Positions 1 through 21,204 of a stretch of 64,000 bases of DNA are shown here, piece by piece. The DNA comes from Patescibacteria group bacterium (GTDB taxonomy: Bacteria; Patescibacteriota; Patescibacteriia; SG8-24), in NCBI GenBank assembly GCA_028714475.1, contig JAQTNC010000002.1:14609-78608 (forward strand), read 5' to 3'. The notes below the pieces were generated by a model. It saw only the letters and a list, made by a program, of their open reading frames with translations, ran no database searches and was not told where the DNA came from. The position numbers and the translations under genes are program-made. The stretch's first letter is position 1, and each line of letters opens with the position of its first letter.

Positions 1-30
1 CCATGTGGCGAAAAGGCGCAAGCCACACCG

Positions 31-51
31 CAAGACCTGACCCCGTTTTCC
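31..51 (-). repeat. Copy A1 of recurring motif (reverse orientation): caagacctgaccccgttttcc, the reverse complement of GGAAAACGGGGTCAGGTCTTG
   Basis: Direct read. Matches the 3611/5837/7816 copies over ~20 nt. Confidence 0.6.
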
Positions 52-164
52 ACACTACCGCCGCCTAGTGATGTTCCGAGCGGAATAAAAGGAGGGTCTT
101 GCTGAATGTTTTCACAATTTGAAATATGTGAAATTCGATAATACATGCTATTCTTGATTCACAT

Positions 165-186
165 CCCAAGACCTAATCCCAAAACG
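165..186 (-). repeat. Degenerate copy A2 of the same motif (cccaagacctaatcccaaaacg), 130 bp from A1 in the same orientation
   Basis: Direct read. Resembles the right arm of the 3611-3666 palindrome (tcaagatctaacccaaaa). Confidence 0.4.
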
Positions 187-388
187 TGTGGAATACCCAC
201 TTGTTTGGTCAAAAACCCGCCATCCATCGATGACGGGTTATTGAGTTAGCGCGACGCCACGATGCCCGGAGCCTCAAAAACGACCTTGGCAGGGAATGGA
301 ACTGGGTAAAATCAGCGCGCTGCATTTTATGTAAAAATCATATATAGTCTAATCACAGAAAAGAGGCGGCATTGCTAATAAGATCCAT

Positions 389-1126
389 ATGGATATAAAC
401 GAATCCCACCCAAACGCTAAAAGCAATCTTAAGAATAGAACGGAAATTTTGGAATATTCCCTCACCATCGAAGATGCCATTGATTCCTTGTTGCTCATGT
501 ATTTGGGCATATATGATAAAAAGAAATCCAAAGGGCCTCAAGTATCAAAAACAAAATTTAACGTTAGTTTTCAAAGCAAAATAGATTTGTTGTTTGACAT
601 AGATGTCCTGTCAAAAGAAGAACATTCAGATTTAGAATTATTAATGAATTTTCGAAACAAATTTCTTCACGAAATTAGATGTAATTCATATTTATCCGTA
701 GTAAATCTTTTTGATAATGGAATTAAGAATAGATTTAAGAAATATTTAAATAAAAATGGCAGCATAGAAGAGGAAGATTCATGTAAATGGGGGTGCTTCA
801 ATTTATATGGCAAGAATCTTCAGACAATTCAAAAAAAGGTTAAGGAAAAAATCGACCAAACTCAAGACAAGGCCAGTCTCGTTAATACTCTTCTAGCAAA
901 GAACGTAAGAATGATTGACATGTCTTTTGGTTTTGTTACTGACTTGCTTAAGGAAATGAAAAAGGCCGAATTAGAAAATCGTAAAATTCGAGCATTGGTA
1001 AGTTTGGTAGCGTCAAAATGTAAAGATTACACCGACGGTATAGGGGTTGATAGGAGAATGGCAAAATTAGATAAAAGAATGAAGAAGCTTCTTTCCGAGG
1101 AAAGAATAAAAAAGTACCTTAAATAA
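389..1126 (+). CDS. Hypothetical Lys-rich protein encoded by a strongly AT-rich gene, with a HEPN-like R-x4-H motif (RNKFLH, residues 89-94). Candidate effector/partner of the downstream ATPase.
   Basis: 245-aa ORF, the only long ORF here. GC about one third versus 60%+ in the flanks. 12-nt gap to the next gene on the same strand. No recognisable housekeeping family. Confidence 0.5.
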   Translation: MDINESHPNAKSNLKNRTEILEYSLTIEDAIDSLLLMYLGIYDKKKSKGPQVSKTKFNVSFQSKIDLLFDIDVLSKEEHSDLELLMNFRNKFLHEIRCNSYLSVVNLFDNGIKNRFKKYLNKNGSIEEEDSCKWGCFNLYGKNLQTIQKKVKEKIDQTQDKASLVNTLLAKNVRMIDMSFGFVTDLLKEMKKAELENRKIRALVSLVASKCKDYTDGIGVDRRMAKLDKRMKKLLSEERIKKYLK

Positions 1127-1138
1127 AGATGCTCCGGT

Positions 1139-3445
1139 ATGCGGTTCAGAAAAATCAAGGAAATTATGGACAGCGACGCATTTGACTCCTTCGACTGGAA
1201 GGGGCCAGATTTTAGGCGCTATAACTTGATTTACGGGTGGAACGGCTCGGGAAAGACCACGACATCCAGAATCTTTCGGTCAATAGAGTGCGGCGCGGTC
1301 GCGACAGAATTGGGTGCGACCCAGTTTCAGGTGGTGACGGAGGACGGAATTATGAGGAACGTCGACATCACGGCTCCGTCCAATGGCGTCAGAGTATTCA
1401 ACGACGACTTCGTTAAGGAAAACCTAGAGTTCCATGAGTCCAAAACCAAGCAAATCCTCATAGTCGGCAATGCTAGCATAGAGGCGGAGGGCAAAATCAG
1501 GTCTCTGGAAGAGCGCAGAAAGGAAGCTGGCATAGAAAGGAAAGTGTTGGAGGAAAGCCTGGGCAAAATCAAGCCGCTCGACAAGATTCGCAAGGCCGCC
1601 AGCGACGAGGTGGTGAAGCAGTTTGCCAACACGCCGCTCGGCACCAGCGACTACAGCGGTCGCAAGTACAACAGAAAGGAAGTCGATGACCTTCTCGCGA
1701 AAAACATTATCACCGAGGCGAATGTCAAGTCGCTGGTTATCAATAAGCAGGAGGATATCGACCGCCGCCGCGAGGTAATTAAGAGCCAGCGCCAGAAGGT
1801 GCCGGTCTTTCCCGAAACGGTTGAGGACTTCTCGCAGGTGTTTGCCGACGCGAACCTGCTTCTTCAGGCCAGTCCGGCGGCAGAAAAAATTGACGAGCTT
1901 TCTAACGATGACGAGAGGAGATTGTGGGTGGAGGACGGCTACGCACTTCACACCGCTCGAGGCTCCCACGGCTGCCTATTTTGCGGTAAGACGCTCGACG
2001 GCGGATTCCTTGAGCGTCTCGCGAGGTTCTTCACAAAAGAGATGGACGAGGTCAAGAAGAATGTCGATGTAGCCATCGCACTACTGGACACGTCGCCCAT
2101 GCGCGGCGAGACGTCACAGCCGGACGCGGGTCTGCTGCTGCCCGACCTGAGCATCGAGTATCTATCCTTCAAGGCAGAGGCCGACAGGTACGCGGTGGAG
2201 ATTCGGGCGGCGATCGGCAAGATGACGCAGGCGCTCAAAGACAAACGGCAAAACGTCCAAGCGGTAGCACCCGGGCTTAAGATCGTAGAATACCCATCAA
2301 AGGCCATCACTGGTTTCAACGAGGTCATCGCAAAGATGGTCGCCACGATACACAAGCACAACGAGCAGATCGACAAGAAAATCGAGGCCGCCAAGGAGAT
2401 AGAGCTGCACATCGTCGCCAAGACGCTCGTGGAGAAGGACTACTTCTCGACAAAGGCCGAACATGATTCCCTGACTACGAAAATCGGCGGCCTGACCACA
2501 GAGATTGACGAGATCGAGCGTAAGGTCGCCGGTTTAAAATCGGCCATCCTAGACTCGGCGATCGCCATCGGGAAGATAAACGGGATGCTCGAAGAGTTTT
2601 TCGGGCGGGGCCACATTTGCCTCGAACCTGCCACGGGCACCGACTTGGGTTATGTTCTAAAGAGAAGGGGCAAGAATGCGAGGAACCTGAGCGAGGGCGA
2701 GAAGAACGCCGTGGCCTTGGCGTTCTTCCTGACAAAGCTCGATGAGGGAGACTTCAGCAAGAAGGATGGTTCGGTGGTCGTCGACGACCCCGTCGACAGT
2801 CAAGACGAGCTGTTCCTATTCCGCGCGTTCAGCCTAATCAAGCGGCATGTTAGCCCCTGCGGCCAAGTAATACTGCTCACGCACAACTTCCCGCTGTTCA
2901 ACTTGGTGCGTGACTGGCTTTCTCACGAGAACCGTAAGCGTCACAAGACCAAAAATGACTCGGTGTCCGAATTCTTCATGATGAGGTGTCTGAGAAGTGA
3001 GTCCAGTCACGAGACCGTTGTCGAGCCGCTCCATGACTTGCTGATGAAGTATAAAACGGAATACCAGTATCTATTCCACCAGCTGTACAAATTCGGCGCT
3101 GGCGAGGCTGGCGTCGACGTGCCCCTGATTCCGAACATCGGTCGCAAGGTGCTCGAATACTTCGCCAGCTTCAAGTGGTCGTGCGACGTGGGCGAGGAAC
3201 TCGGGGCGATTGTCCAAGAGAAATACGTTGACGCCCCTAACGCCACCACCGATCAAAAGGCCAACGGGGACTTCATAAAGAAATTCGTGGACGAGTATTC
3301 GCACGGCAAGGACTTCGGCAGGCCGATAACGGCGGCTACTTTTGAGGCAAAAAACGTAGCGGTTAACGTGCTCAAGCTGATTGAGACCGCCGACCCCGAA
3401 CACTACGACCGGCTCGTCGCTCTTTGCAAGGAGGACGACGAGTGA
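1139..3445 (+). CDS. RloC/PrrC-like (AAA_13-type) Rad50/SMC-fold ABC ATPase with coiled-coil insert and CxxC zinc hook
   Basis: 768 aa. Walker A GWNGSGKTT (aa 33-41, nt 1235-1261). ~450-aa charged, helical insert carrying CLFC at aa 279-282 (nt 1973-1984). ABC-signature-like LSEGEKNAV. Walker B VVVDDPVDS. H-loop LLTHN. ~180-aa C-terminal tail containing RSESSH (R-x4-H). Confidence 0.7.
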   Translation: MRFRKIKEIMDSDAFDSFDWKGPDFRRYNLIYGWNGSGKTTTSRIFRSIECGAVATELGATQFQVVTEDGIMRNVDITAPSNGVRVFNDDFVKENLEFHESKTKQILIVGNASIEAEGKIRSLEERRKEAGIERKVLEESLGKIKPLDKIRKAASDEVVKQFANTPLGTSDYSGRKYNRKEVDDLLAKNIITEANVKSLVINKQEDIDRRREVIKSQRQKVPVFPETVEDFSQVFADANLLLQASPAAEKIDELSNDDERRLWVEDGYALHTARGSHGCLFCGKTLDGGFLERLARFFTKEMDEVKKNVDVAIALLDTSPMRGETSQPDAGLLLPDLSIEYLSFKAEADRYAVEIRAAIGKMTQALKDKRQNVQAVAPGLKIVEYPSKAITGFNEVIAKMVATIHKHNEQIDKKIEAAKEIELHIVAKTLVEKDYFSTKAEHDSLTTKIGGLTTEIDEIERKVAGLKSAILDSAIAIGKINGMLEEFFGRGHICLEPATGTDLGYVLKRRGKNARNLSEGEKNAVALAFFLTKLDEGDFSKKDGSVVVDDPVDSQDELFLFRAFSLIKRHVSPCGQVILLTHNFPLFNLVRDWLSHENRKRHKTKNDSVSEFFMMRCLRSESSHETVVEPLHDLLMKYKTEYQYLFHQLYKFGAGEAGVDVPLIPNIGRKVLEYFASFKWSCDVGEELGAIVQEKYVDAPNATTDQKANGDFIKKFVDEYSHGKDFGRPITAATFEAKNVAVNVLKLIETADPEHYDRLVALCKEDDE

Positions 3446-3610
3446 TGAGCGTCGGCGGTGCTAATCAAACCGTCCTTCAGGACGAAGTTCGACAGCAGTC
3501 TCTCGAGTATGGCCCGCTTCTCGTCCCTCGTGCCCTCCTTGAGCACGTATTTGGCGTACGTCCTGACGTTGAACCCGGCCGCCGCCTTAGCCAGCTCGTC
3601 TGTCATGCCC

Positions 3611-3666
3611 CGGAAACGGGGTCAGGTCTTGAATCATCAGTTTTCATGTTAATCAAGATCTAACCC
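3611..3666 (+). repeat. Copy B of recurring motif (cggaaacggggtcaggtcttgaatcatcagtttt), forming an imperfect palindrome with tcaagatctaaccc 20 nt downstream
   Basis: Direct read. Preceded by the small hairpin ccccg-gaaa-cgggg. Sits about 165 nt after the stop of the 768-aa gene. Confidence 0.6.
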
Positions 3667-3725
3667 AAAATCCTGACGACCTTTGTCCAACGCTTCTTCG
3701 GCGCGGTCTGCAACATCTAGTCATG

Positions 3726-3734
3726 TGCTATAAT
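3726..3734 (+). promoter_or_regulatory. Extended -10 element TGcTATAAT upstream of the Zn-ribbon gene
   Basis: TGcTATAAT about 33 nt upstream of the ATG at 3767. RBS GGGAGGA 7 nt before the ATG. Confidence 0.4.
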
Positions 3735-3766
3735 ACAATCGGTCCTTTTTGAAGGGAGGAACCGAG

Positions 3767-4189
3767 ATGTTGACCATCAGATGTCACTTCCATCCGCGCT
3801 ATCGGGCCCATAGGGAGCCCAAGAACGATTGTGAGACCTGCCGGCTCCTTTACGCCTTGGCTCATCAGCAAGACGGGAACACCGAAGAGATTCTTAGGCG
3901 GCTCGGTTCAGGGCTCGCCGGAACAACTGGTGACGACAAGATGTCTGTAGCCCTGGAAGGCATGGAAACGGGCAGGGCCTCGACCCTGACGGTGAAGTGC
4001 AGCCATCACCAATATCAGGCCACCCGGAAACCAGGGTGGAATTGCGATGCCTGCTGGCTCCTCTTTGTGCTCAAGTTCCAAGCCCACAAGGACGGAGAAA
4101 GGCGACTCGGTCCCTTCAATCCGTACGCCTACGTCATCGGTCACGTGAATCTGAAAGCAGCCTGTGCCGCCCTGCTGATTGTCAGGTAG
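3767..4189 (+). CDS. Small protein with two tandem Zn-ribbon-like repeats (C-x-H-H/F-H ... C-x2-C)
   Basis: 140 aa. Repeat 1 is CHFHPRYRAHREPKNDCETC and repeat 2 is CSHHQYQATRKPGWNCDAC, each followed by a W/RLL(Y/F)xL motif. Strong RBS. Own promoter. Confidence 0.5.
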   Translation: MLTIRCHFHPRYRAHREPKNDCETCRLLYALAHQQDGNTEEILRRLGSGLAGTTGDDKMSVALEGMETGRASTLTVKCSHHQYQATRKPGWNCDACWLLFVLKFQAHKDGERRLGPFNPYAYVIGHVNLKAACAALLIVR

Positions 4190-4291
4190 ACGGACGGCAA
4201 GCATCTTCGGCTCCCGCTGGGAGCTTTTTGTTTAGCCCAATCGTCATGAAAATAATGGCTCGAATCCCAGCCTTGCGCCTAAACTGCAGGG

Positions 4292-4320
4292 TTGACAAAA
4301 TGCTTGTTATCAGATATACA
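4292..4320 (+). promoter_or_regulatory. Sigma70-like promoter: TTGACA, 17-bp spacer, TATACA
   Basis: ttgacaaaatgcttgttatcagatataca, 60 nt upstream of the 4380 ORF. Confidence 0.45.
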
Positions 4321-4379
4321 TTTACTGTTCTGCCCTCAATCTTTTCGGAAAACACACATAGAAGGCGAGGCAATACGAA

Positions 4380-4565
4380 ATGAGCGACAAGCCGGCTGGA
4401 ACTTATCAGTGCGTTATCTGCTCGGCTACTTGGGACGGGTCACAGTTGCACGAAGACCCGATGAGTACGGGCCAGCGGTGGACTTGCGGCGATCCTTTCT
4501 GCGGGGCCAATGTCCGCAAAATCAGCGACGAGCCAAAAGCAAAGAAGAGTCCCGGTCAAACGTAA
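4380..4565 (+). CDS. Small Zn-ribbon protein (CxxC ... CGDPFC)
   Basis: 61-aa ORF. YQCVICSATW and WTCGDPFCGAN cysteine pairs. Consensus promoter upstream. Confidence 0.4.
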   Translation: MSDKPAGTYQCVICSATWDGSQLHEDPMSTGQRWTCGDPFCGANVRKISDEPKAKKSPGQT

Positions 4566-4738
4566 TGAAAGGCAGACGAATTCTTGAACCCGCCGTAGTC
4601 CATTGGACGAAAGCGGGTTTTTTAGCGTCCAAAATGCGGAACCATACAATTTAAGACTCCAAAAACACCCGTTCGTCATGGCATATCCAGGCGGTATGCT
4701 GGTATACTAAACCAGCGAATCAACCCTAAGAAACCCAA

Positions 4739-5857
4739 ATGAACAAGGCCATTCTATACAATGTTATCGGCGTACTGGCAGTCTTGGCGGTAATATTTTT
4801 CAAGATACCGGCGGTCTGGGTGGTTCTCGGGATTTTGGCGGTTTTGGTCATGGTCATCGTCAGCCCCTTTGTGCCCGCCGTCGAAAGCATCCCGAAGGGG
4901 TTCGTCGAAAAGAAATTCGACACGGGGAAAGTCATCCTGAATTACGTGGAAGGCCCGGACAACGGCCCGCCAATGCTTTTTATTCCGGGACAAACGGAAT
5001 TCTGGCAAGGCTATAAACTGGTCATGCCCAACTTCGCCAAGAAGTATCACGTCTTCGTCGTAGACGTCAGGGGGCACGGGAAATCGACCAAAACTCCTGG
5101 CGAATATTCCTACAACATCATCGGCGAAGACCTGAAGGCTTTTTTGGAAACGGTCATCAAGAAACCGGCGATCGTGTCCGGTTTGTCTTCCGGGGCCGTT
5201 CTCGCCTTGTGGTTGGCGGCCAACGCCCCGGAGTCGGTCTCGGCCGTCGTGAGCGAGGATCCGCCGCTCTTTTCCGCCATGTGGCCGCACATCAAGGAGG
5301 AAAAATACATGTATCGCCTGTTTGAAATCATGGTTGAGTGTCTCGGCAAGCCAAAACGGGACATCTTGGACTACTTCATGAAGCAGGGGATTCCCAAAGA
5401 CGGTCAGGATGAGCTGTTGCTGATTCCACCCTGGATCGCCAAGTTCATCGTGGGTGATTTTGAACTCAACAAAAGATTTCGCCCGTCAAAAAAGTACGAC
5501 GTGCCTTTGGCTCCCTTCAGCGGCCGGGTCGGCCTCAAGTTCATCAGTGAGTACGACGTTGATTTTTCCCGGGCCACGATTGACGGCCGGTTGACGGCAG
5601 GGTTCAATCCCGAGGAGACGTTAAAAAAAATCAACTGCCCCGTATTGTTGATTCAGGCGCTTTGGTCCAGGCACGCGACCTGGGGACTGCTGGGGGCGCT
5701 GGATGACAAAGACGTTGAAAAAATCCGCGCCCTGGTAAAAAACCTCCAGGTCGTAAAAGTTAAAGCCATCCATGATGTTCACTTGTCCAAGCCAAAAATT
5801 TTCATCAAGGCGGTCAATGAATATCTGGATAGTTTACGGAACGGGGTCAGGTCTTGA
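4739..5857 (+). CDS. Membrane-anchored alpha/beta-hydrolase fold protein
   Basis: 372 aa. Two N-terminal hydrophobic helices. HGxGxS-type VVDVRGHGKS. GxSxG nucleophile elbow GLSSGA. Stop codon TGA lies inside motif copy C. Confidence 0.75.
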   Translation: MNKAILYNVIGVLAVLAVIFFKIPAVWVVLGILAVLVMVIVSPFVPAVESIPKGFVEKKFDTGKVILNYVEGPDNGPPMLFIPGQTEFWQGYKLVMPNFAKKYHVFVVDVRGHGKSTKTPGEYSYNIIGEDLKAFLETVIKKPAIVSGLSSGAVLALWLAANAPESVSAVVSEDPPLFSAMWPHIKEEKYMYRLFEIMVECLGKPKRDILDYFMKQGIPKDGQDELLLIPPWIAKFIVGDFELNKRFRPSKKYDVPLAPFSGRVGLKFISEYDVDFSRATIDGRLTAGFNPEETLKKINCPVLLIQALWSRHATWGLLGALDDKDVEKIRALVKNLQVVKVKAIHDVHLSKPKIFIKAVNEYLDSLRNGVRS

Positions 5858-5869
5858 ACTATCAGTTTG
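5837..5869 (+). repeat. Copy C of recurring motif (cggaacggggtcaggtcttgaactatcagttt)
   Basis: Matches copy B over >30 nt. Contains the stop codon of the hydrolase gene. Confidence 0.65.
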
Positions 5870-6021
5870 ACCAGTCGTCGCCTCATTGTCGCCGCTGGCC
5901 CTTTTTTGCTGTAATTTACCAACTAAAAGGCCTACGGTGTAGGCGGGCCGTTAAGTGTAATCACGGCGATAATCGGTTGTTGTATTGGTTTGTCGTAGTG
6001 GTTAGTAGAGACGGCGGAGAC

Positions 6022-6053
6022 AAAAGACGGGTTTAACCCGTCTTTTGTTTTTG
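6022..6053 (+). terminator. Rho-independent terminator (aaagacggg-ttta-acccgtcttt plus T-run)
   Basis: Perfect 9-bp stem followed by TTTTGTTTTT. Confidence 0.6.
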
Positions 6054-6112
6054 ACCCGCGACGGCGTCGGCGTTACAATGCCCGTATAATTCTTCACCTT
6101 CTTTTTGCTCAT

Positions 6113-6922
6113 ATGCGTGCAAAACATCTCATCTCCACTTCATTGTTATTGGCATCGCTCGCGCTCGTCGGCTTTGGTTGTGGCCAGAAGGCGTCCGTAT
6201 CCACGAACGCGTCGCCGGCCGCCAACAAGCAGCCCGCCGCGCCGGCCGAGAGGCCGAGCACTACGACTTCGGACTCCTGCGGCAACCCGTATTACCCGTT
6301 CAAGCCCGGCTTGACCATCGCCTATAGCGTCACGCCGCCAGCGAACACCCCGGGAGATGCCGACTACACGGTCCGCACCGTCAGCGTATCCGGCAACAAG
6401 GCCACGGTGCGCACCGAGATGGCCGGCGGCGTCACTGCCGACATGGAGGCCGACTGCGCGAACGGCTCCGTTGAGATGAAGGGGTCGTCTGGGCTCGGCG
6501 CCGACGTCCAGGGGTTCAAGACGACCGTCATCTCGTCGAGCGGCACATTCATGCCAGCGGACGTCTCGGCCGGTTCCACCTGGAGCAACTCGAAGACGGT
6601 GAGGATGGATTCGGCCGGCGGCTCGGCCGCGGCTGCGGCCATGGGTTCGCTCATCATGACTACGACGGAGCAGAGCCGGGCGGTCGGCGAGGAATCGGTT
6701 ACGGTTCCGGCCGGCACGTATAAGGCGATGAAGGTCGAGTCGACGCAAACCACGACCTCCAAGTTTTCGGCTACGCCGGCGGGCACGCAGTCCAGCGAGA
6801 TGCCGCCGTCGACTTATACGTCCACCGAATGGTTGGTGAAAGGCATCGGCATGGTGAAATCCGTGACGAAGGGCGAGGGCGGCACCTCGACCACCGAGGC
6901 GAAGTCGATCACCGGGCTTTGA
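6113..6922 (+). CDS. Ser/Thr-rich lipoprotein, function unknown
   Basis: 269 aa. Signal peptide with lipobox LVGFGC. Low-complexity T/S/A-rich sequence. The antisense ORF 6146-7003 is judged a GC shadow. Confidence 0.6.
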   Translation: MRAKHLISTSLLLASLALVGFGCGQKASVSTNASPAANKQPAAPAERPSTTTSDSCGNPYYPFKPGLTIAYSVTPPANTPGDADYTVRTVSVSGNKATVRTEMAGGVTADMEADCANGSVEMKGSSGLGADVQGFKTTVISSSGTFMPADVSAGSTWSNSKTVRMDSAGGSAAAAAMGSLIMTTTEQSRAVGEESVTVPAGTYKAMKVESTQTTTSKFSATPAGTQSSEMPPSTYTSTEWLVKGIGMVKSVTKGEGGTSTTEAKSITGL

Positions 6923-7147
6923 CGCGTAACGGCACCTGCTTAACGTACGGAACGGAAAAGAGGACGTCCGGCTCGGGCGTCCTCTTAATGTGCGTCGGCT
7001 CACCCGAAAGTTTCCGGCAGAAAGCCCTCAACAGCTTCGATTTTGCAGCCGAGCAGCCGCCGCCGGCGAAGCCCCGGGCTGCGGCCCGGGTGAGCGGCGG
7101 GTGAACCGGAATACCTACCCCAAACATTTGGTGTAGAATAGAATCAT

Positions 7148-7546
7148 ATGCAAAACAACATGCCCAAATTCCTTTATTGGACCCCAAGAATTCTATCGAT
7201 ATTGTTTATTTGCTTTTTGGCAATATTTTCGTTGGATGTAATTTCTCCCGGATTAGGTTTTTGGCAAATAGCTATTGGATTATTCATGCATAATATTCCG
7301 GTATTCGTCTTGACGGCCGTTTTGGTTATTTCGTGGAAACACGAACTCGTCGGCGGAATCGTTTTTAGCCTAGTCGGGCTACTCTTTGCCGCCAGGATGG
7401 TGATTACTATGCTGACGAACCGGTTTGAATGGGGTGGGCTGTTTGGAGCCCTGCCGCTGGCCGTTCCAGCGCTTCTGATAGGAATATTATTTATTACTGG
7501 GTGGCTTAAAAAGAGGACTGGCCGTAGTGATGTATCCGTGAAATAG
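7148..7546 (+). CDS. Small integral membrane protein (4 predicted helices) encoded by a relatively AT-rich gene
   Basis: 132 aa with hydrophobic helices. Lower GC than the flanks. Confidence 0.5.
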   Translation: MQNNMPKFLYWTPRILSILFICFLAIFSLDVISPGLGFWQIAIGLFMHNIPVFVLTAVLVISWKHELVGGIVFSLVGLLFAARMVITMLTNRFEWGGLFGALPLAVPALLIGILFITGWLKKRTGRSDVSVK

Positions 7547-7601
7547 GTTCTGACTTCGTCTACAGTACGGACACAAAAAGTCAGAACTTGTTGGGATGTG
7601 A

Positions 7602-7925
7602 ATGCCTATGCGCCGATTCAACATCAACGAGCTCGCCGACTGGCAGTCGCCGGAGCGGCGCGATGACTTGCCCAAGTGTGAATTCTCGGGCAAGGACATG
7701 CACCCGAACGAGCGGAGCGCAAAGGCCGCCGCAACTTGGCGCGAATCGCAGGCCGGGACGCCGATGGGCGTCTATTTTTGCGTGTGGTGCAAAGCTTGGC
7801 ACCTGACGTCTTCCCGGGTAACGGGGTCAGGTCTCGGACGTGAATTCCGCGGCGTCCCGACCCCCCTTACCGACCATCGGCACCAGCCTTCTCGCCATAT
7901 TGACATTGCATTTGTAACCTCCTAA
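7602..7925 (+). CDS. Small Cys-containing protein (CEFSGK ... CVWCKAW). The C-terminal 29 codons read through motif copy D.
   Basis: 107-aa ORF. Preceded by the hairpin gttctgactt-N21-aagtcagaac. Confidence 0.35.
   Translation: MPMRRFNINELADWQSPERRDDLPKCEFSGKDMHPNERSAKAAATWRESQAGTPMGVYFCVWCKAWHLTSSRVTGSGLGREFRGVPTPLTDHRHQPSRHIDIAFVTS
7816..7866 (+). repeat. Copy D of recurring motif (gggtaacggggtcaggtctcgg), forming an imperfect inverted repeat with cgtcccgacccccc
   Basis: Direct read. The TTGA of copies B/C is TCGG here. Confidence 0.55.
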
Positions 7926-7959
7926 GGTTGATTTAAAGGTCTTTTTGTGGAGGTGCAAG

Positions 7960-8907
7960 ATGAAAACACCGATCTTCCCGCAGGCGCTGCTTGGTACGGG
8001 CATAGTGCCGTTTGGCGACCTGAAAATCAGCGTCGCGAGCCCCACGAGTCAGTACGGTCACGGCGTCTTCGAAGGCGTCAGGGCATATCCGGCCAGCCGC
8101 GGCGGCATGATCGTTCCCGCCTTGCGCCAACACATGGCCAGAATGTTTCGTTCGGCGCGGGCCTTGTTCTCGGACTTCGCGATTCCCATCACGCAAGAGG
8201 AGGCGTGCGAAAGCGTCCGTCGGCTGGTCGAGACCAACGACATCAACGAGCCGGTGTACATCAGGCCGTCGCTGCTCATCCCGGTCGCCTGCACCATCCA
8301 TCTTGAGCCGGTGGAGGGACCGAAAGAGCTCATCTTCTCCGCCTACGCGCAGAGAAGCAGCCGGTTCAGGAGAGAGGGCCTGTCCTGCATCGTCTCGCCG
8401 CTTCGCAAGCCACACGCGCGGGTGGCTCAGCACAAGGCTTGTGGCATGTACGTGTACCTAGGCATGGCTAGCGCCATGGCCGAGGAGGCCGGCTACGACG
8501 AGAGCATTCTGCTCGATCAGGACGGCCTGGTCGCCGAAGGCACCTATCAGAACATCGTTTTCGAGAAGGATGGGGTGCTGTGGGAACCGCGCCGAGAGGG
8601 GCGGCCCATCATGCCGAGCATCACTCGGGACGTCGTGCGGTGTCTGATTGCGGAAGATATGCCCGGTGGCAGGGAAATTGTGCCCACGGACGTCACGCCG
8701 CAGACGATGGTCAGGGCCGATTCGCTCATGCTGTTGGGCACCGCGTCGGAGATATGTTTCGCGCGCAAGGTTTGCTTAGACGGCGTCGATTATCAGATCG
8801 GTTCCGGCGAGGACACACCGACGCCCTTCGTGGCCGCGGTTCGGGATTCGTACGTCCGGTTTGTCAGCGGGGAACTTGGGCACGAAGACCTCTTGGTTCG
8901 GGTCTAG
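7960..8907 (+). CDS. Class IV aminotransferase (branched-chain / D-amino-acid aminotransferase family)
   Basis: 315 aa. FEGVRAY motif and overall BCAT-like layout. RBS GGAGGTG. Confidence 0.8.
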   Translation: MKTPIFPQALLGTGIVPFGDLKISVASPTSQYGHGVFEGVRAYPASRGGMIVPALRQHMARMFRSARALFSDFAIPITQEEACESVRRLVETNDINEPVYIRPSLLIPVACTIHLEPVEGPKELIFSAYAQRSSRFRREGLSCIVSPLRKPHARVAQHKACGMYVYLGMASAMAEEAGYDESILLDQDGLVAEGTYQNIVFEKDGVLWEPRREGRPIMPSITRDVVRCLIAEDMPGGREIVPTDVTPQTMVRADSLMLLGTASEICFARKVCLDGVDYQIGSGEDTPTPFVAAVRDSYVRFVSGELGHEDLLVRV

Positions 8908-9052
8908 CGCCACCGTCTTCATAATAACCGCCCTGTCTCAAGGGGCGGTTTATTAGTTAATTGCGCCCCGAGCCTCGGCCTTGCCATTTTTTGGCTATGT
9001 GGTAAAGCTAGAGATAGTGTTCGGCCTTTACAGGCAAGAGAGGAGTCGCGTC

Positions 9053-10165
9053 ATGATTATCGGCTTACCCAAGGAGATCAAGAAGGCGGAGTATCGCGTA
9101 GCCTTGACCCCGGCCGGAGCAAGGGAACTGACGCAGTGCGGCCATGATGTTTTAGTCGAGATGGGAGCTGGCCTCGGTAGCGGTTTCCCCGACGAAGCCT
9201 ATGTTCAGGCAGGCGCGTGGATCATCACCACGCCTGGGGAGATTTTCGGCCGTTCGGAACTGGTGCTTCACGTGAAGGAGCCCCAACCTTGCGAACGGAA
9301 CCTTATTCGCGAGGGACAAGTGCTGGTCGAATACCTGCACTTGGCCGCGGATCAGGGTCTCACGGAGGCGCTCATTCGAAGTCGGTGCGTCGCCTTCGGT
9401 CTGGAGACATTCCGGGGAACCAGGGATCCGTTGCCGCTACTCACCCCGATGAGCGAAGTGGCCGGATGTCTGGCGGCCCAGCAGGCCGCGAAGTACCTCG
9501 AACGGCCGATGGGCGGACGCGGCATCCTGCTCGGCGGCGTGACCGGCGTCGAACCGGCGACCGCGGTCGTCATCGGCGGCGGTGTTGTCGGCGAGAACGC
9601 GGCGCGAAAGCTCGCCGGGTTGGGCGCGAGAGTGCACGTCCTGGACACCAACCTGGATCGACTGCGCCGTCTGCGCGAGATCATGCCGGCGAACTGCGTG
9701 ATGCTGAAGTCCGACGAGGCCACCATTCGGCGCCTGCTTCCGTTGGCTGACGCCGTCATCGGCGCGGTGCTGGTCGCTGGCGCGAAGGCACCGCGGCTCA
9801 TCACGCGGGACATGCTTTCCACCATGAAGCCCGGCTCGATTATCGTGGACGTGGCCATTGACCAGGGCGGCTGCTGCGAGACCTCACGGCCCACGACCCA
9901 CGAGAACCCGACCTATGTCGTGGACGGCGTCGTTCATTATTGCGTCGCCAACATGCCCGGCTGTGTCCCATGGAGCTCCACCATGGCGCTCACGAACGCC
10001 ACGTTGCCGTACATCCTGGCGATTGCCAATCTCGGTTGGCGCCAAGCCGCCCGCGAACGGCCCGACATCCGCGCTGGCATCAACGTCCTCAACGGTCAGA
10101 TTGTCTGCCCGGAGGTCGCTAAAGCCTTCGGTATGCCCTTTGCCAGTATCGACGATCTGCTCTAG
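9053..10165 (+). CDS. ald: Alanine dehydrogenase
   Basis: 370 aa. N-terminus MIIGLPKEIKKAEYRVALTPAG. Rossmann GGGVVG motif. RBS AGAGGAG. Confidence 0.85.
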   Translation: MIIGLPKEIKKAEYRVALTPAGARELTQCGHDVLVEMGAGLGSGFPDEAYVQAGAWIITTPGEIFGRSELVLHVKEPQPCERNLIREGQVLVEYLHLAADQGLTEALIRSRCVAFGLETFRGTRDPLPLLTPMSEVAGCLAAQQAAKYLERPMGGRGILLGGVTGVEPATAVVIGGGVVGENAARKLAGLGARVHVLDTNLDRLRRLREIMPANCVMLKSDEATIRRLLPLADAVIGAVLVAGAKAPRLITRDMLSTMKPGSIIVDVAIDQGGCCETSRPTTHENPTYVVDGVVHYCVANMPGCVPWSSTMALTNATLPYILAIANLGWRQAARERPDIRAGINVLNGQIVCPEVAKAFGMPFASIDDLL

Positions 10166-10203
10166 TCGGCCAGCTTCCACCGAGCAGTCTCGTCCTCTCC
10201 ATG

Positions 10204-10229
10204 CCAGGCGCTATCGCCTGGCTTTTTTG
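10204..10229 (+). terminator. Rho-independent terminator (ccaggcg-ctat-cgcctgg plus TTTTTTG)
   Basis: 7-bp stem plus T-run, 39 nt after the ald stop. Confidence 0.7.
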
Positions 10230-10258
10230 TTTGAATTACGTTGCTGGGTCTCGTTGAA

Positions 10259-10275
10259 CCCCCCAAGACCTGACC
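10259..10275 (-). repeat. Copy E of recurring motif (reverse orientation; ccccccaagacctgacc)
   Basis: Reverse complement GGTCAGGTCTTGGGGGG. Lies between the ald terminator and the kinase gene. Confidence 0.5.
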
Positions 10276-10367
10276 TTATTTAAGAAAGATGCCCCCACTT
10301 TCCCGGGAAAATCAGCTTCACAAATGGCCGTTATTTTGCTAAAATTAAATAGACAAAGAAACCCCTT

Positions 10368-12038
10368 ATGCCAGCGAATATCGACCTCTTTAAGAGCGAG
10401 AACATGCGTCGCACGGAAGAAAGGCAGCGGACGCGGATGTTTTATCTATTCTCCGGCATCGCCATCCCGTATCTGCTGGCATACGGCGTTTTTGATTATC
10501 TTGATGCGCGAGGAGGGGTGCATATCGTCATCGGAGCCATCGAGCACCTGCTCGCTTTTCTGCTGCTATTAAGCGTTGCCCGGTATTATAAGCACAGTCA
10601 GCTCTCTGTCCTGAAGCCCCTGATTACGGTCTTGATGATGATCATGCTTCTTGTGTCGATGTTTGACGGGGGCATATCCGGCACCGCGATATATTGGCTT
10701 TTCGTCTTCCCGCCCGCGGCTTTTTACCTGAACGGTTATAAGCCCGGCATTTTCTATAACACGCTATTTTTCGTCTGCTCGGTCGCGTACCTGCTATTGC
10801 AGCGCGCCGGCATCATCCCAGCCTTTTACTCGATGGAACAGCTTGTGCAGATGTTGTTTGTCCTGCTGCAGGTTTTCCTCATCAGTTTCGCCGCGCAATT
10901 CAACCTCGAGAAGTTCCGGGTAACCATCATCAGCCAGCGCGAGCATTTGCGCGTGCTGTTGGGCGGCTTGCCCGTTGGCATCACCATGGTCGTGGCGCCT
11001 GACGGTCGGCTTTCCACGGCCAACCCGAGCGCGGAGCGGCTGTTCGGCCGCACGATCGAACCGAACGTCAAGGCAGCCGATTTCCCCAAAACCTACCAGT
11101 TAGCCAGGGAAGACGGCACCCCGTACCCGGCGGAAGACCTGCCGCTCACCGTCGCACTCATGCGCGGCGAAAGCACGGTCAAGAACGACGTGTTCGTCAA
11201 GAGGCCTGACGGGTCGCACGCGGTGTTGCGCGTCTCGGCCGCGCCGGTCCGCGACGAGACCGGTCGCATCGTCTCCGCAGTCGCGGTCTGGGAGGACGCG
11301 ACCAAAGAGCATGAAATCAGCCGGATGAAATCGGATTTCATCTCGCTTGCCTCGCACCAGCTGCGGACGCCGCTTACTTCAATAAAGTGGTCCATCGAGA
11401 TGGCGGCCGACGAGGAGAACGGCCCGTTGTCGCAGGCTCAAAAGGAAGCGCTGGACTTCGCCCGGCGATCGACCATACGTTTGGTCCGTCTGGTCAGTGA
11501 CCTGCTGAACGTTTCGCGGATCGAACGCGGCCAAATCGCCCTGCAGCCGGAACTCACCGACCTTGATGCGCTTTGTCGCGAGGCGGTGGCGGAAATAAAC
11601 CCGACCGCCGTGGAGAAGGGTCTGGCCTTGGAGAATGAAGTTCGTGCCTTGGGTCAGGTCCGTCTCGATCCCAAACTGATATTCCAGGCCCTGCTCAACC
11701 TGTTGGCCAACGCGGTGAAATACACCCCCAAGGGCGGGCACATCGAGGTCGGCGGCCGGCGCGGAGCCAATGAGGTCGAGATGTTCGTACGCGATAGCGG
11801 CGTGGGCATTCCGGCCGAAGCGAAGGACAAGATCTTCCAGAAATTCTTCCGCGCCGACAATGTTTCCGTGGACAACGAAGGCACCGGCTTGGGACTTTAC
11901 CTGGTCAAGGCCATCATCGAATCGTCTGGCGGCCGTGTTTGGTTCGAATCGGAGGTCGGCAAAGGAACTACCTTCTGGTTCAGCCTGCCTATCAGCGGCG
12001 TCGCGGCCAAGGAGGGCAGTCGTGAATTGATTATTTAG
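10368..12038 (+). CDS. Membrane-bound PAS sensor histidine kinase
   Basis: 556 aa. 5-6 N-terminal TM helices. PAS-like middle region. H-box SHQLRTPLTSI. HATPase_c motif GTGLGLYLVK...GKGTTFWFSLP. Confidence 0.8.
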   Translation: MPANIDLFKSENMRRTEERQRTRMFYLFSGIAIPYLLAYGVFDYLDARGGVHIVIGAIEHLLAFLLLLSVARYYKHSQLSVLKPLITVLMMIMLLVSMFDGGISGTAIYWLFVFPPAAFYLNGYKPGIFYNTLFFVCSVAYLLLQRAGIIPAFYSMEQLVQMLFVLLQVFLISFAAQFNLEKFRVTIISQREHLRVLLGGLPVGITMVVAPDGRLSTANPSAERLFGRTIEPNVKAADFPKTYQLAREDGTPYPAEDLPLTVALMRGESTVKNDVFVKRPDGSHAVLRVSAAPVRDETGRIVSAVAVWEDATKEHEISRMKSDFISLASHQLRTPLTSIKWSIEMAADEENGPLSQAQKEALDFARRSTIRLVRLVSDLLNVSRIERGQIALQPELTDLDALCREAVAEINPTAVEKGLALENEVRALGQVRLDPKLIFQALLNLLANAVKYTPKGGHIEVGGRRGANEVEMFVRDSGVGIPAEAKDKIFQKFFRADNVSVDNEGTGLGLYLVKAIIESSGGRVWFESEVGKGTTFWFSLPISGVAAKEGSRELII

Positions 12039-12059
12039 CTACTTAACGCGTAACCAGAT

Positions 12060-12488
12060 ATGGATTTAGTCAGCAAGGAGACGGGCACGGAGCCAAAAAA
12101 AATCCTCATCATCGAGGATGACGCTCCTCTATCAGCGATGGTGCAGAATAGATTCAAGCGCGAACTGTACGAGACGGTGTCTGCCTTGAACGGTAGTGAA
12201 GGATTGGATGCCGCACGGAAATACCGGCCGGACATCATCGTCCTGGATTTGCTCCTGCCGGTCATGAACGGATTCGATGTCTTGAGCGCCCTTAGGAAAG
12301 ACGAGCTGACTCGCGACATACCAGTCCTGGTTTTGAGCAACTTGAGCCGAGCCGAAGACATCCAGCGGACGCAAATGCTGGGCGCCAACGGCTATTTGGT
12401 CAAGACGGATGTCAGCCTCAAATACGTTACCGAAAAAATCAAAGACCTGCTTTCCAAAGGATCGGCGGGCCAGTCAGTCCGGACTTAG
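12060..12488 (+). CDS. Stand-alone response-regulator receiver domain protein
   Basis: 142 aa. ILIIEDD ... DIIVLDLLLP ... phospho-acceptor Asp context. No output domain. Confidence 0.75.
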   Translation: MDLVSKETGTEPKKILIIEDDAPLSAMVQNRFKRELYETVSALNGSEGLDAARKYRPDIIVLDLLLPVMNGFDVLSALRKDELTRDIPVLVLSNLSRAEDIQRTQMLGANGYLVKTDVSLKYVTEKIKDLLSKGSAGQSVRT

Positions 12489-12577
12489 GACGAGCAGCCG
12501 CTTCTAATCTTGTCGCGTTTTGCTAAAAAAATCGTGAATAACTAACGGGGGTTTAGCCCCAACGTAACGCTTAACGT

Positions 12578-13687
12578 ATGCGTGACCAAGCAGCCGGAAT
12601 ATCACGGCGTAAGACAGGATTTAAGTCATTGTTCCTCGTTGCTGCCATGATGTTGGTAGGGGCCGGCTGCATGCCGGCGAAAGAGGTCGTGGTCGCGCCG
12701 ACGCCCGAGACCAAGCCCGCCGCGCCAGCTCCGCAGCCGAAAATCGAGCCGCTCACGCTTACCTACACGCTCAAGAATTTTTTTGGCCCGAATTCGGAAT
12801 CCGGCGTGACCTTTTGGCTTGAGGAAGCGAGGAAATGCGACGGACGCGACGCTTATCTGGGCCTCATGAAAATGCAGGCCGGTCCCGGTTCAAACCAGGA
12901 CGTTTACGCGAAGGTCACCATCTATGCGGATAACGGCGAGTTGGCCAGCACAAGGTTTGTCCAGCCGGACGAGCTGGTCTTCGACGACATGATTCCCCAA
13001 TACAACGACCTGTCCATCCCGCTCACCGTCAACTTCTTTTTCGCCGCTGGCGGCAAGAATTTCAACGAGGACGCGAACTGGAACGCTTCAGCCCCGATTC
13101 TTCTGAAGCAGGTCGACACCGGCAAGCAGGTTGCCGACTACTCGGTCGTCCGTCAAGCCGGCGATGACGACACGTCCGGCATTGCCCCATGCCGAAAATT
13201 CAAGATCGTCGAGAAGAGCACGAACGGCAGTTCCACTTATGCCGTTTGCCTTAGCAAGGACGTCGGCAAGTTTAAACTGCCCTTCGTCGTTTCCATGGCC
13301 TTTGCGGGCGATGGGGGAATGCCGAGCTGGGCTTTGAAAAGCTTCTCCAGCGATAAATCCGGCGTGGATTGGGTGCCGCAGTGCTTGAAGCCGGTCAAGT
13401 GCGTCGCGCCGAAGCAATTCACCGACGTCGAACAGCGAACCTGCAACAGCAAGGGTTCGCAGATCGAACCGGTGGTTGATGACAACGGCTGCTTCACGGA
13501 GTACAAGTGCATGTCCCAGGAGGATTTGGCCGAACGGTCAATCAACAACATGCAGCGCCCCGGCTGTGGCGTGAATCCGGCCGTCAAGCAGAAGGTGGTT
13601 CAGTGCCGTAAGCAGAACATGCCGAACTTCGACACGACGCAGTATGACAACGGCGGTTGTATGCTGGATATTGTCTGTCGGCCGTAA
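12578..13687 (+). CDS. Cys-rich lipoprotein, unknown function
   Basis: 369 aa. Lipobox LVGAGC. C-terminal third has about 14 Cys. Confidence 0.55.
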   Translation: MRDQAAGISRRKTGFKSLFLVAAMMLVGAGCMPAKEVVVAPTPETKPAAPAPQPKIEPLTLTYTLKNFFGPNSESGVTFWLEEARKCDGRDAYLGLMKMQAGPGSNQDVYAKVTIYADNGELASTRFVQPDELVFDDMIPQYNDLSIPLTVNFFFAAGGKNFNEDANWNASAPILLKQVDTGKQVADYSVVRQAGDDDTSGIAPCRKFKIVEKSTNGSSTYAVCLSKDVGKFKLPFVVSMAFAGDGGMPSWALKSFSSDKSGVDWVPQCLKPVKCVAPKQFTDVEQRTCNSKGSQIEPVVDDNGCFTEYKCMSQEDLAERSINNMQRPGCGVNPAVKQKVVQCRKQNMPNFDTTQYDNGGCMLDIVCRP

Positions 13688-13731
13688 TTGTACAGCGCGA
13701 TAGTCGGTTAGCCTAAACTCGTAGATGAAAA

Positions 13732-13762
13732 GGCGGGCATCGTTATCGGTGCCCGCTTTTTT
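13732..13762 (+). terminator. Rho-independent terminator (gcgggcatcg-ttat-cggtgcccgc plus TTTTTTG)
   Basis: 10-bp stem with one mismatch, plus T-run. Confidence 0.7.
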
Positions 13763-13767
13763 GCATG

Positions 13768-13783
13768 CTTCGGGGTCAGGTCG
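13768..13783 (+). repeat. Copy F of recurring motif (cttcggggtcaggtcg), immediately after the terminator
   Basis: Shares the core GGGGTCAGGTC. Confidence 0.45.
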
Positions 13784-13818: not shown

Positions 13819-14181
13819 ATGTGGGAACAAATCAAGGAGTATCTTATCTATTTCGTGGTCGGCGGCGCGGTGACGGCGGCCATCGTGGGGCTGGAGAAGA
13901 CCGGCTCGCGCCTGCTCTCCGGCCTGGCGACGCTCGTGCCGGTCTTCACTCTCATCGCCTACTACTTCATCGGGGAAGCGCGCGGCGGCGTCGCGGTTTC
14001 CCAGCACGCCTGGCTGGTGCTTTTTGGCACGCTCGTATCCTGGGTGCCGTACATGATCGTGGTGGCCGTTTTGGCGCCGCGTCTTGGGCCGTCAAAGGCG
14101 ATTCCAACCGGGCTTGTAGTCTTTTCGGTGCTTGCCGTCGCGTATTTGCAGACGGTACGGCACTTCGGCTGGTTCCGCTGA
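13819..14181 (+). CDS. Small membrane protein (3-4 TM), unknown function
   Basis: 120-aa hydrophobic ORF. In frame with the upstream part of the 13821-15401 track ORF but separated from the MFS domain. Confidence 0.45.
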   Translation: MWEQIKEYLIYFVVGGAVTAAIVGLEKTGSRLLSGLATLVPVFTLIAYYFIGEARGGVAVSQHAWLVLFGTLVSWVPYMIVVAVLAPRLGPSKAIPTGLVVFSVLAVAYLQTVRHFGWFR

Positions 14182-14186
14182 CACTT

Positions 14187-15401
14187 ATGAAGCCAAAGAA
14201 TTCCGTTCAGTCAGTCCGCTCGAAAATACCGCGCAACGTCATCGTGGTGGCGTTTGTCGCCCTCGCGTCCGGATTCGGCCAGGATCTGATCTCGCCGATC
14301 CTGCCGTCGTATCTCCTGCTCATCGGCGTCAGTTCGGCAGGCATCGGCCTCATTGACGGGCTCCTCCAGGGTGCGACGAACGTTTTTAGGTTCGTTTCCG
14401 GCGTGCTGTCGGATCGGCTGCGCAACCGAAAAGGGCTGGTCTTCCTTGGTTACGCACTCTCATCGGTTGCCCGCCCGCTTCTCGCAATTGCGGGGTCGTT
14501 CGGTTTTGTCGCCGCCTTGCGGATAGCCGACGGCATTGGCAAGGGGACGAAGGATGCGCCACGGGATGCGCTCGTAGCCGACTCCGCTCATGAAGGAGGG
14601 AAAGGCCGCGCTTTCGGCTTCCAGCGTCTTGTTGACACGGTAGGATCAGTCATCGGACCGCTGACGGCCGCCGCGCTGTTACTGGCGCTTGCCCCATCTC
14701 TTGGCACGTATCGGCTGATTTTCCTCCTGTCCGCCGTGCCTGGCGCCATCGCCCTCGCGCTCATCGTCTTCGGCGTACGCGAACCGGAAAAACCCGCGCC
14801 GGAGGCGGCGGTGATCCAGCGGAAATTGCCGTTGCGTTTTTGGCTTTTTGTCGTTGCGGCCACCATCGGACTGCTGACAAAAATCAACGACTCGCTTTTC
14901 CTGGTGCGGGCCAGCACGCTCGGCGTGTCCGCGACTTGGCTGCCGGTGGTGTTTGCCGGCTTCACTTTGGTTTACGCGCTGTTGTCATACCCGCTTGGGG
15001 CGTGGAGCGACCGCATCGGCAAGCCGCCGCTCATCGTGGCCGGCTGGCTCACGTTAGGCATCGTGGAACTAGGCTTCTCGTTTGATGCCCCGCTGGCACC
15101 GACGTTCGGCCTGTTCGCACTTTACGGCCTCTTTTACGCCCTCACCGAAGGTTCGGCGCGCGCGTTCATTGCTGAAATCGTACCGTCGGATGCGCGCGGC
15201 AGCGCCTTCGCCGTTTATTACACGCTGACCGGCGTTGCGGTCATTGTGGGCGGCTACGGCCTCGGCCACCTTTGGGATGTCGTTTCGTCCGACGCCGCGT
15301 TCCGAGTCGCGGCCATCGGCTCAATGGTGGCCGCCGTGTTGTTTGCCGGGCTAATTAAACGACGTCCGGAACCCGCTCAAGCACCATCCGCGTTGGTATA
15401 A
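14187..15401 (+). CDS. MFS transporter
   Basis: 404 aa. 12 predicted TM. MFS motif GxLxDRxGxR (SGVLSDRLRNRKG). Confidence 0.75.
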   Translation: MKPKNSVQSVRSKIPRNVIVVAFVALASGFGQDLISPILPSYLLLIGVSSAGIGLIDGLLQGATNVFRFVSGVLSDRLRNRKGLVFLGYALSSVARPLLAIAGSFGFVAALRIADGIGKGTKDAPRDALVADSAHEGGKGRAFGFQRLVDTVGSVIGPLTAAALLLALAPSLGTYRLIFLLSAVPGAIALALIVFGVREPEKPAPEAAVIQRKLPLRFWLFVVAATIGLLTKINDSLFLVRASTLGVSATWLPVVFAGFTLVYALLSYPLGAWSDRIGKPPLIVAGWLTLGIVELGFSFDAPLAPTFGLFALYGLFYALTEGSARAFIAEIVPSDARGSAFAVYYTLTGVAVIVGGYGLGHLWDVVSSDAAFRVAAIGSMVAAVLFAGLIKRRPEPAQAPSALV

Positions 15402-20866: not shown

Positions 20867-20897
20867 GCCCGGCGTTTGCCGACGTCGGGCCAACCAA

Positions 20898-20922
20898 GCC
20901 CCGGTTTCTCACCGGGGTTTTG
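20898..20922 (+). terminator. Rho-independent terminator (gccccgg-tttctca-ccgggg plus TTTT)
   Basis: Direct read. Confidence 0.6.
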
Positions 20923-21127
20923 TAGTTCACCTCCGCCGAATGCCCCGGGCGCGGTGCCCCACGAAGCATTGCGTAGTGGGGTCAGCCCGGGTTCCTGACG
21001 CGTGAATCCCCCGAAGCCCGGAGGGCGTAGGGGGCAGCGGGCTACGGTGAATGAAACAGGATGGGGCGTTAGATACCCCGGGCGTGAGCCCGTGGAGTCT
21101 TCATTGAAAAAATTTGCGAATACACAA

Positions 21128-21157
21128 GAGCGGCTGGCAGGTGCCAAGCCGCTCGTG
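21128..21157. terminator. Hairpin gagcggct-N11-agccgctc with T-run on the minus strand. Terminator for the minus-strand membrane protein gene.
   Basis: Direct read. Confidence 0.55.
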
Positions 21158-21204
21158 AGGAGACTGGTGTTATTTTTCATCCGTGAGACGGCCTGGCTGT
21201 CGAA

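Follow-up and report, generated by a model that had tools for sequence, protein, structure and literature searches.

The DNA analysed here (the window) is a 64,000-nucleotide stretch of contig JAQTNC010000002.1 (positions 14,609 to 78,608) from a Patescibacteria metagenome-assembled genome (MAG), GCA_028714475.1. Its first 14 kb contain a short motif, (A)ACGGGGTCAGGTCTTG, which recurs among orphan open reading frames (ORFs) and genes of mixed GC content and which a first-pass annotation had read as the mark of an integron-like cassette array. In other genomes the same motif forms the terminal inverted repeat (TIR) of a small element, the TIRtron, that encodes a Y1 transposase termed TIRYT. As judged from sequence comparison, the copies in the window are probably solo and paired TIR relics of such an element, resembling repetitive extragenic palindromic (REP) sequences or miniature inverted-repeat transposable elements (MITEs), rather than the borders of integron cassettes.

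Repeat copies in the window

Eight copies of the motif lie between positions 29 and 13,782, five with an exact 11-base core GGGGTCAGGTC (starting at 34 on the minus strand and at 3618, 5843, 7823 and 13772) and three degenerate. A 22-mer search with up to 3 mismatches retrieved those at 29-50 (minus), 3612-3633, 5837-5858 and 7817-7838 (plus), and none of 100 shuffled sequences gave any match. The 14-mer GGGGTCAGGTCTTG, also with up to 3 mismatches, gave 17 matches where 4.7 ± 2.2 are expected. These include the degenerate copies at 167-180 (minus, 2 mismatches), 3654-3667 (minus, 3 mismatches) and 10264-10277 (minus, 2 mismatches); the remaining 3-mismatch matches (11617 and eight past 14 kb) are at chance level. 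All seven sites reported by the first-pass annotation were recovered to within a few bases.

The copies occupy six sites, all in the first 22% of the window. As had been noted before, the other 50 kb hold no convincing copy by the 22-mer, core or 14-mer search. Since many intergenic gaps of 100-600 nt occur there, a shortage of intergenic space does not explain the copy-free 50 kb. A weak site previously placed at 20977 proved to be an exact GGGGTCAG at 20967-20974 that has only those 8 bases in common with the motif, and it is not a copy. The GC-rich, structured-looking intergenic stretch of ~340 nt at 20866-21200 has no Rfam match at gathering scores, and the short-read contig L004 ends inside it, at ~20972.

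Read in order, the orientations are -,-,+,-,+,+,-,+, that is, four plus and four minus, and decay has gone to different lengths: the octamer GGGGTCAG is exact in copies A, B, C, D and F and decayed in A2, B2 and E. Copy A (29-50, minus strand) is a solo TIR, GAAAACGGGGTCAGGTCTTGCG, that includes the exact 17-mer AACGGGGTCAGGTCTTG. Copy A2 (165-186, minus) is a degenerate solo TIR in direct orientation with A, 136 nt apart, whose core at 167-180, GGGATTAGGTCTTG, has 2 mismatches. Both lie in the 5' region of gene 389. Copy B (3612-3643, plus; GGAAACGGGGTCAGGTCTTGAATCATCAGTTT) is a TIR of the GAAYYATCAGTTT subtype and the left arm of a MITE-like dimer, its degenerate inverted partner being B2 (3654-3675, minus; TGGGTTAGATCTTG, 3 mismatches), with which it forms a modest 9-bp hairpin stem. 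B lies ahead of both a possible minus-strand ORF (3403-3606), whose start is 6 nt away, and the next plus-strand gene. Copy C (5837-5868, plus), a TIR of the same subtype as B, overlaps the 3' end of the alpha/beta-hydrolase gene 4739-5857 and supplies its last six codons and TGA stop (…RNGVRS-stop). Copy D (7817-7838, plus) is a solo TIR, GGTAACGGGGTCAGGTCTCGGA, ~45 nt past a terminator-like hairpin at 7756-7773. Copy E (10264-10280, minus) is a solo TIR with a decayed outer end, AAGGTCAGGTCTTG, ~40 nt past the alanine dehydrogenase (AlaDH) terminator at 10203-10222. Copy F (13772-13782, plus) comprises the outer TIR half only, GGGGTCAGGTC, and is preceded by a terminator-like hairpin seen by eye.

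Every copy is therefore intergenic or at a gene end, and C, D, E and F are at gene 3' ends or just past terminators. The broader claim that each copy sits at the 3' end of a gene fails for A, A2 and B. Inverted copies had likewise been described downstream of both B and D; the one at B is B2, and D is followed only by a weak 12-nt inverted partial match at 7855-7866. Copies B and C are alike at ~30 of 33 nt, subtype-specific tail included, in agreement with the >30-nt match noticed earlier. Copies A, D, E and F are common with B and C over the outer 11-20 nt only, and the inner repeat differs. The two most degenerate copies, A2 (165-186) and B2 (3654-3675), are closer to each other (TTTTGGG(A)TTAGRTCTTG) than to the consensus, a likeness that hints at an older or second subfamily.

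The transposase element bracketed by the motif elsewhere

An ORF starting MARPLRIE…YHV adjoins the motif in 16 of 120 genome loci and in 5 of 28 metagenome loci. Pfam searches with five such ORFs identified a Y1_Tnp (IS200-like) domain in all five and a C-terminal HTH_23 domain in all four that are full-length; the closest solved structure is E. coli TnpA-REP (4er8), a weak match (E = 0.027). At 13 loci, drawn from genomes and metagenomes, the nearest inverted copies of the motif bracket this ~285-aa gene at a constant distance of 896-987 bp. In 13 of 20 elements the distance from the left copy to the ATG is 31-35 nt, and the right copy overlaps the transposase stop codon (…FKT-stop, …CKT-stop). 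The repeat contains TGA in both orientations and thereby ends the TIRYT genes, for example at the right ends of loci L065 and L019. A copy on a Legionella adelaidensis plasmid (L161 2355-2375), annotated 'transposase', has kept only the degenerate right repeat over the stop codon. Carriage on plasmids was rejected, as no more than 10 of the 72,556 plasmid records have TIRYT-like genes. Chromosomal or other loci with a TIRYT include those of Thiococcus pfennigii (L073) and Alloalcanivorax venustensis (L100).

Left ends show a regular arrangement, in which a hexamer TTGCAA, TTGAAT or TTGACA just inside the repeat is followed by ~16-17 nt, a -10-like hexamer, 6-7 nt and the ATG (L005, L019, L032, L049, L056, L065, L072, L073, L089, L109, L120, L140 and L150). 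Given this spacing, the repeat seems to include the transposase promoter, and the transposase mRNA, as far as the distances indicate, is probably leaderless. In the window, copy F is followed by TCGCCA-N17-TATAAT, 9 nt and the ATG (13819) of a GlpM-like ORF, an arrangement that reads as a possible repeat-derived promoter.

Single non-transposase genes also occur between inverted copies ~770-1150 nt apart. They encode a 196-aa ORF that looks uracil-DNA-glycosylase-like by eye (L143 404-1246), an ORF that looks HAD-like by eye (L046 2904-3723), and ORFs of 259 aa (L075 6847-7824), 151 aa (L116 3083-3921) and 372 aa (L100 3656-4819). Such genes could sit there by chance, within clusters of repeats, or as replacement cargo of TIRtrons.

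Distribution of the motif

Scanning one genome per species for the 17-mer AACGGGGTCAGGTCTTG returned at least 120 genome stretches from more than 15 phyla. The matches listed include Pseudomonadota, Acidobacteriota, Nitrospirota, Actinomycetota, Myxococcota, Desulfobacterota and Planctomycetota, further Atribacterota, Omnitrophota, Bacillota, Chloroflexota, Rokubacteria and others; no Patescibacteria record is among them. An estimated ~70 chance matches are expected for a 17-mer in the scanned genome database, and most of the matches extend beyond the 17-mer as …CTTG(C/A)A. An inverted partner lies within 60 nt in 28 of 135 matches and a direct partner within 60 nt in 13 of 135. The B/C subtype ACGGGGTCAGGTCTTGAAYYATCAG was found on 28 metagenome contigs with GC contents of 29-62%, and locus L149 carries the exact B variant as a ~95-bp inverted dimer. 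Groups of repeats like those in the window are present in L032, L046, L062, L089, L100 and L116. IMG/VR yielded only 3 matches, whose flanks lack the TIR extension; these look like chance, and viral carriage of the motif was rejected.

In 18 of 135 matches the outer boundary of the repeat is duplicated in tandem, 1-3 times, in the form X-ACGGGGTCA-X-ACGGGGTCAGGTCTTG, where X is locus-specific and the unit measures 9-17 nt (L073, L078, L112, L113, L054, L039, L012, L080, L147, L149, L155 and others). The duplication lies upstream of the motif and spans the point where flanking DNA meets the outermost 9-10 nt of the repeat. At L045, L032 and L063 the tandem units are longer, 25-32 nt. These boundary duplications may have been left by nicking or slippage at the end of the element. 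No copy in the window clearly shows one.

Relation to described repeat families

RAYT-like genes (for REP-associated tyrosine transposases) with long TIRs have been named TIRtrons and their enzymes TIRYTs, and many of the TIRs share the consensus GGGGWSAS; the TIR families are moderately abundant and occur as singles, dimers or clusters (Di Nocera 2013, PMC3733652). The consensus is also quoted, as GGGG[AT][CG]A[CG], in a later classification that places 20 of 26 TIRYTs in TnpA-Y1 subclass 2.1, with HTH_23, HTH_28 or Bac_DnaA_C tails (Quentin 2018, PMC6006769). Beyond these two papers TIRYTs are not mentioned in the literature searched, and a literature search by GGGGTCAGGTC and its reverse complement returned unrelated papers only. 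Group 1 RAYTs are the most widely distributed RAYTs, their commonest flanking 16-mer occurring ~12 times per replicon (Bertels 2017, PMC5581495). The TIRYTs are probably the same as the Group 1 RAYTs, an equation that we infer here.

The sequence (A)ACGGGGTCAGGTCTTG(C/A)A fits the published consensus, which it contains as GGGGTCAG. Because the motif carries this signature of the described repeats, it belongs to the described, barely studied family; because it flanks a Y1 transposase gene elsewhere, the window copies are best taken as probable solo or paired TIR relics. The TIRtron is an element of ~0.9-1.0 kb, with one TIRYT gene between inverted copies of the repeat, and the TIRYT is a RAYT-like transposase of the IS200 Y1/HUH type with a C-terminal helix-turn-helix. 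The window matches the published families in its intergenic singles, dimers and clusters and in its moderate copy number, and its motif, like theirs, brackets a Y1/HUH gene with a helix-turn-helix in inverted orientation in other genomes. It differs from them in that the 64 kb contain no TIRYT gene, in that the host is a Patescibacteria MAG, and in that at least 17 nt are identical across phyla, compared with a published consensus of 8 nt.

Similarities extend to the REP and REPIN sequences associated with RAYTs (E. coli TnpA-REP, Pseudomonas REPINs), which are also short, non-autonomous intergenic repeats arranged as singlets and inverted doublets, and which are linked to a usually single-copy, repeat-flanked Y1 transposase gene with presumed single-strand cleavage. 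A REP or REPIN unit is a self-complementary sequence of 20-40 nt with a conserved GTAG (or CGTC) tag. The motif in the window has neither tag, its single units are not stable hairpins, and it is conserved across phyla instead of being species-specific; the protein linked to it has an extra C-terminal helix-turn-helix and only the weak similarity to 4er8 given above. With MITEs derived from insertion sequences the B/B2 pair shares the appearance of two joined ends with the interior deleted, as do L149, L132 and L156. Here, however, the parent enzyme is of the Y1/HUH and not the DDE type, target-site duplications are not evident and most of the window copies are single ends.

The eight window copies would thus comprise six solo ends and one end-to-end dimer, all non-autonomous, with B/B2 looking like an element that lost its interior in the manner of a MITE or REPIN. 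They would have been spread in trans by a TIRYT whose gene lies at another place in the genome or has since been lost. If this enzyme works like IS200/IS605 TnpA and E. coli TnpA-REP, single-stranded DNA would be cut and rejoined at the repeat ends. The copies may have built up in this 14-kb stretch because it is variable and tolerates insertions, as its candidate defence gene, orphan ORFs and low-GC genes would indicate. In such a scheme the repeats would have no cassette-delimiting role and at most side effects, on transcript ends at C, D, E and F or on a promoter at F. This also means that two alternatives offered by the first-pass annotation, a family-specific REP and a locally amplified recombination site, were close to the mark: the motif is the terminal repeat of a Y1 element, with REP-like relics.

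Several points weigh against this explanation. By tblastn, neither a TIRYT gene nor a remnant of one is present in the 64-kb window (all E > 0.1), and the same holds for a remnant transposase gene between the copies. The literature found reports no transposition experiment on TIRYT repeats, in vitro assays having been proposed as future work (PMC3733652). The limited identity of A, D, E and F with B and C does not require one source element, and a motif that barely varies across phyla could in some cases have come in with foreign DNA and not by transposition in this genome.

Genes around the copies and their relatives

Two genes make up the unit 389-3445. A 245-aa orphan (389-1126, 32% GC) comes first, and the second gene encodes an AAA_13 ATPase of 768 aa with a match to PDC-S06, a candidate defence family of PADLOC (E = 2e-135), and weaker similarity to LmuB and PrrC. 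The unit probably reached this genome of the candidate phyla radiation (CPR) by horizontal transfer, as a defence module. The first 3.2 kb of the window are also present in a 'Candidatus Pacebacteria' MAG. Further along are small orphan ORFs, the alpha/beta hydrolase, a DUF3108-like protein and a DUF7670 protein, and two adjoining pairs, a class IV aminotransferase with AlaDH and a PAS histidine kinase with a response regulator. The GlpM-like ORF downstream of F (13819-14181, weak Pfam match) is followed by a major facilitator superfamily (MFS) transporter; the ORF listing reads the two as a single 526-aa ORF, 13821-15401.

The GC content per gene ranges from 32 to 64%, with low values at 389-1126 (32%), 4292-4654 (49%) and 7148-7546 (44%). 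The compositional heterogeneity pointed out in the first-pass annotation is therefore real, yet GC and GC3 (GC at third codon positions) shift gene by gene and not at motif boundaries. The aminotransferase-AlaDH pair between D and E has typical GC and GC3, and the genes around E and F are host-like in composition. Between copies lie units of 2-3.5 kb with one to four genes each, and terminators and promoter-like sites of their own are present in at least some. No common functional theme connects the flanking genes.

The aminotransferase-AlaDH pair is conserved in the related contig L159 (52% identity), where the motif is absent; it is also absent from the related loci L160, L125 and L126. Since relatives keep the same gene pairs without the motif, the insertions appear to be lineage-specific; the nearest homologues are 42-56% identical, and at this distance orthologous intergenic sites are not alignable. 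Short-read Logan contigs (L001, L158 and L004, from SRR22315509) end at ~-52, 3740-3769, 7035, 9850 and 20972. L001 and L158 overlap by 30 nt, which suggests that the contig ends are branch points of the assembly graph, possibly strain variants. No breakpoint falls inside a copy, with those at -52 and 3740-3769 within ~100 nt of A and B2, and the short-read contigs run through C, E and F. Breakpoints outside the copies and contigs that continue through them speak against the motif as a unit boundary.

Alternative explanations

Other origins for the repeats, or other roles, have to be weighed against an origin as TIRtron relics. The copies could have come with separately acquired foreign segments from donors that carry TIRtron repeats, without amplification in this genome. 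Such donors would be plentiful, given a motif almost identical across many phyla; the first 8 kb mix genes of 32-64% GC, A to C sit among low-GC genes and the candidate defence gene, and the inner part of the repeat in A, D, E and F is unlike that in B and C. Import is nevertheless unlikely as a general explanation: the ~30 of 33 nt that B and C have in common, tail included, suggest a common recent source, D and E flank a gene pair of typical GC and GC3 that related contigs conserve without the motif, and E and F lie among genes of host-like composition. A regulatory role, in which one regulator (e.g. the TIRYT helix-turn-helix domain) would bind at the copies or the copies would be portable -35 elements that co-regulate the flanking genes, draws on the -35 hexamer held at fixed spacing in the left TIR of TIRtrons, on the apparently leaderless promoter there, on the N17-TATAAT and ATG that follow copy F, and on the helix-turn-helix of the transposase itself. 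We regard it as quite improbable. A -10 element stands at the right spacing only at F; C, D and E are at gene 3' ends or past terminators and point away from or into genes; the flanking genes lack a functional theme; and the sites are missing from relatives with the same genes. It is more doubtful still that inverted pairs serve as ends for a trans-acting TIRYT, the genes between them being movable cargo in a Y1-transposase analogue of a cassette array. The candidate pair is D (plus, 7823) and E (minus, 10264) around the aminotransferase-AlaDH genes, and the non-transposase genes between inverted copies at L143, L046, L075 and L116 fit such a reading, but under random orientation an inverted pair of this kind has a chance of one in four, and relatives keep the gene pair without repeats.

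Integron attC sites are imperfectly palindromic stretches of 55-140 nt that fold into a bulged hairpin, R'' (RYYYAAC) on the 5' side and R' (GTTRRRY) on the 3' side, and in an array they all point the same way, one for each short, mostly promoterless cassette. The proposal of the first-pass annotation that the window holds an integron-like array of this kind, a cluster of attC sites lacking integron-integrases (CALIN) in which each motif closes an independently acquired cassette, had its basis in a short site that recurs near gene ends amid orphan ORFs, mixed GC and variable gene content, and in the imperfect palindrome of B/B2. However, the copies are in mixed orientation, and the attC-like hairpins anticipated for them did not emerge: 76-91 nt around each, folded as single-stranded DNA, gave z scores of -1.3 to +0.3, none better than shuffled sequences. 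Only B/B2 is palindromic and only B/B2 has heptamers resembling the GTTRRRY/RYYYAAC core sites, and these (GTCAGGT … ATCTAAC) stand in R'…R'' order, the reverse of attC. The multi-gene units described above are not single promoterless cassettes, and the GC shifts do not track their boundaries. An integrase gene, which the first-pass annotation had proposed to look for ahead of the window, was sought by tblastn with an IntI1 query, with nothing at E < 2 in the 64 kb; the upstream sequence read from contig L002 covers 343 nt and is the end of an unrelated gene. In other genomes, moreover, the motif demonstrably marks the ends of a Y1-transposase element. Given the orientations, the folds, the order of the boxes, the content of the units and the lack of an integrase in the window, the attC reading was discarded and can be given hardly any weight. 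Rfam models matched nothing at gathering scores over the whole window, and relaxing the cutoff to E ≤ 1 over 1-14.5 kb added a single chance match, to RNase P, in searches that used no attC-specific covariance model; a known RNA family as the identity of the motif was likewise dropped for lack of a relevant match.

Implications

The TIRtron family has already been described; what is new is the occurrence of TIRYT terminal-repeat relics, as we interpret them, in a Patescibacteria MAG. A false lead is thereby removed, as the motif array in this CPR genome is not an integron, and the repeat is assigned to a family dealt with in only two papers (PMC3733652, PMC6006769). For annotation, the motif offers a simple marker for the element and its relics and can explain odd C-terminal extensions of flanking genes (…GVRS-stop, …FKT-stop). 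For work on HUH/Y1 transposases, the family presents an element end of which at least 17 nt are the same in phyla from Atribacteria to Proteobacteria, a -35 hexamer in the left repeat, a leaderless-looking transcript and tandem duplications at the element boundary.

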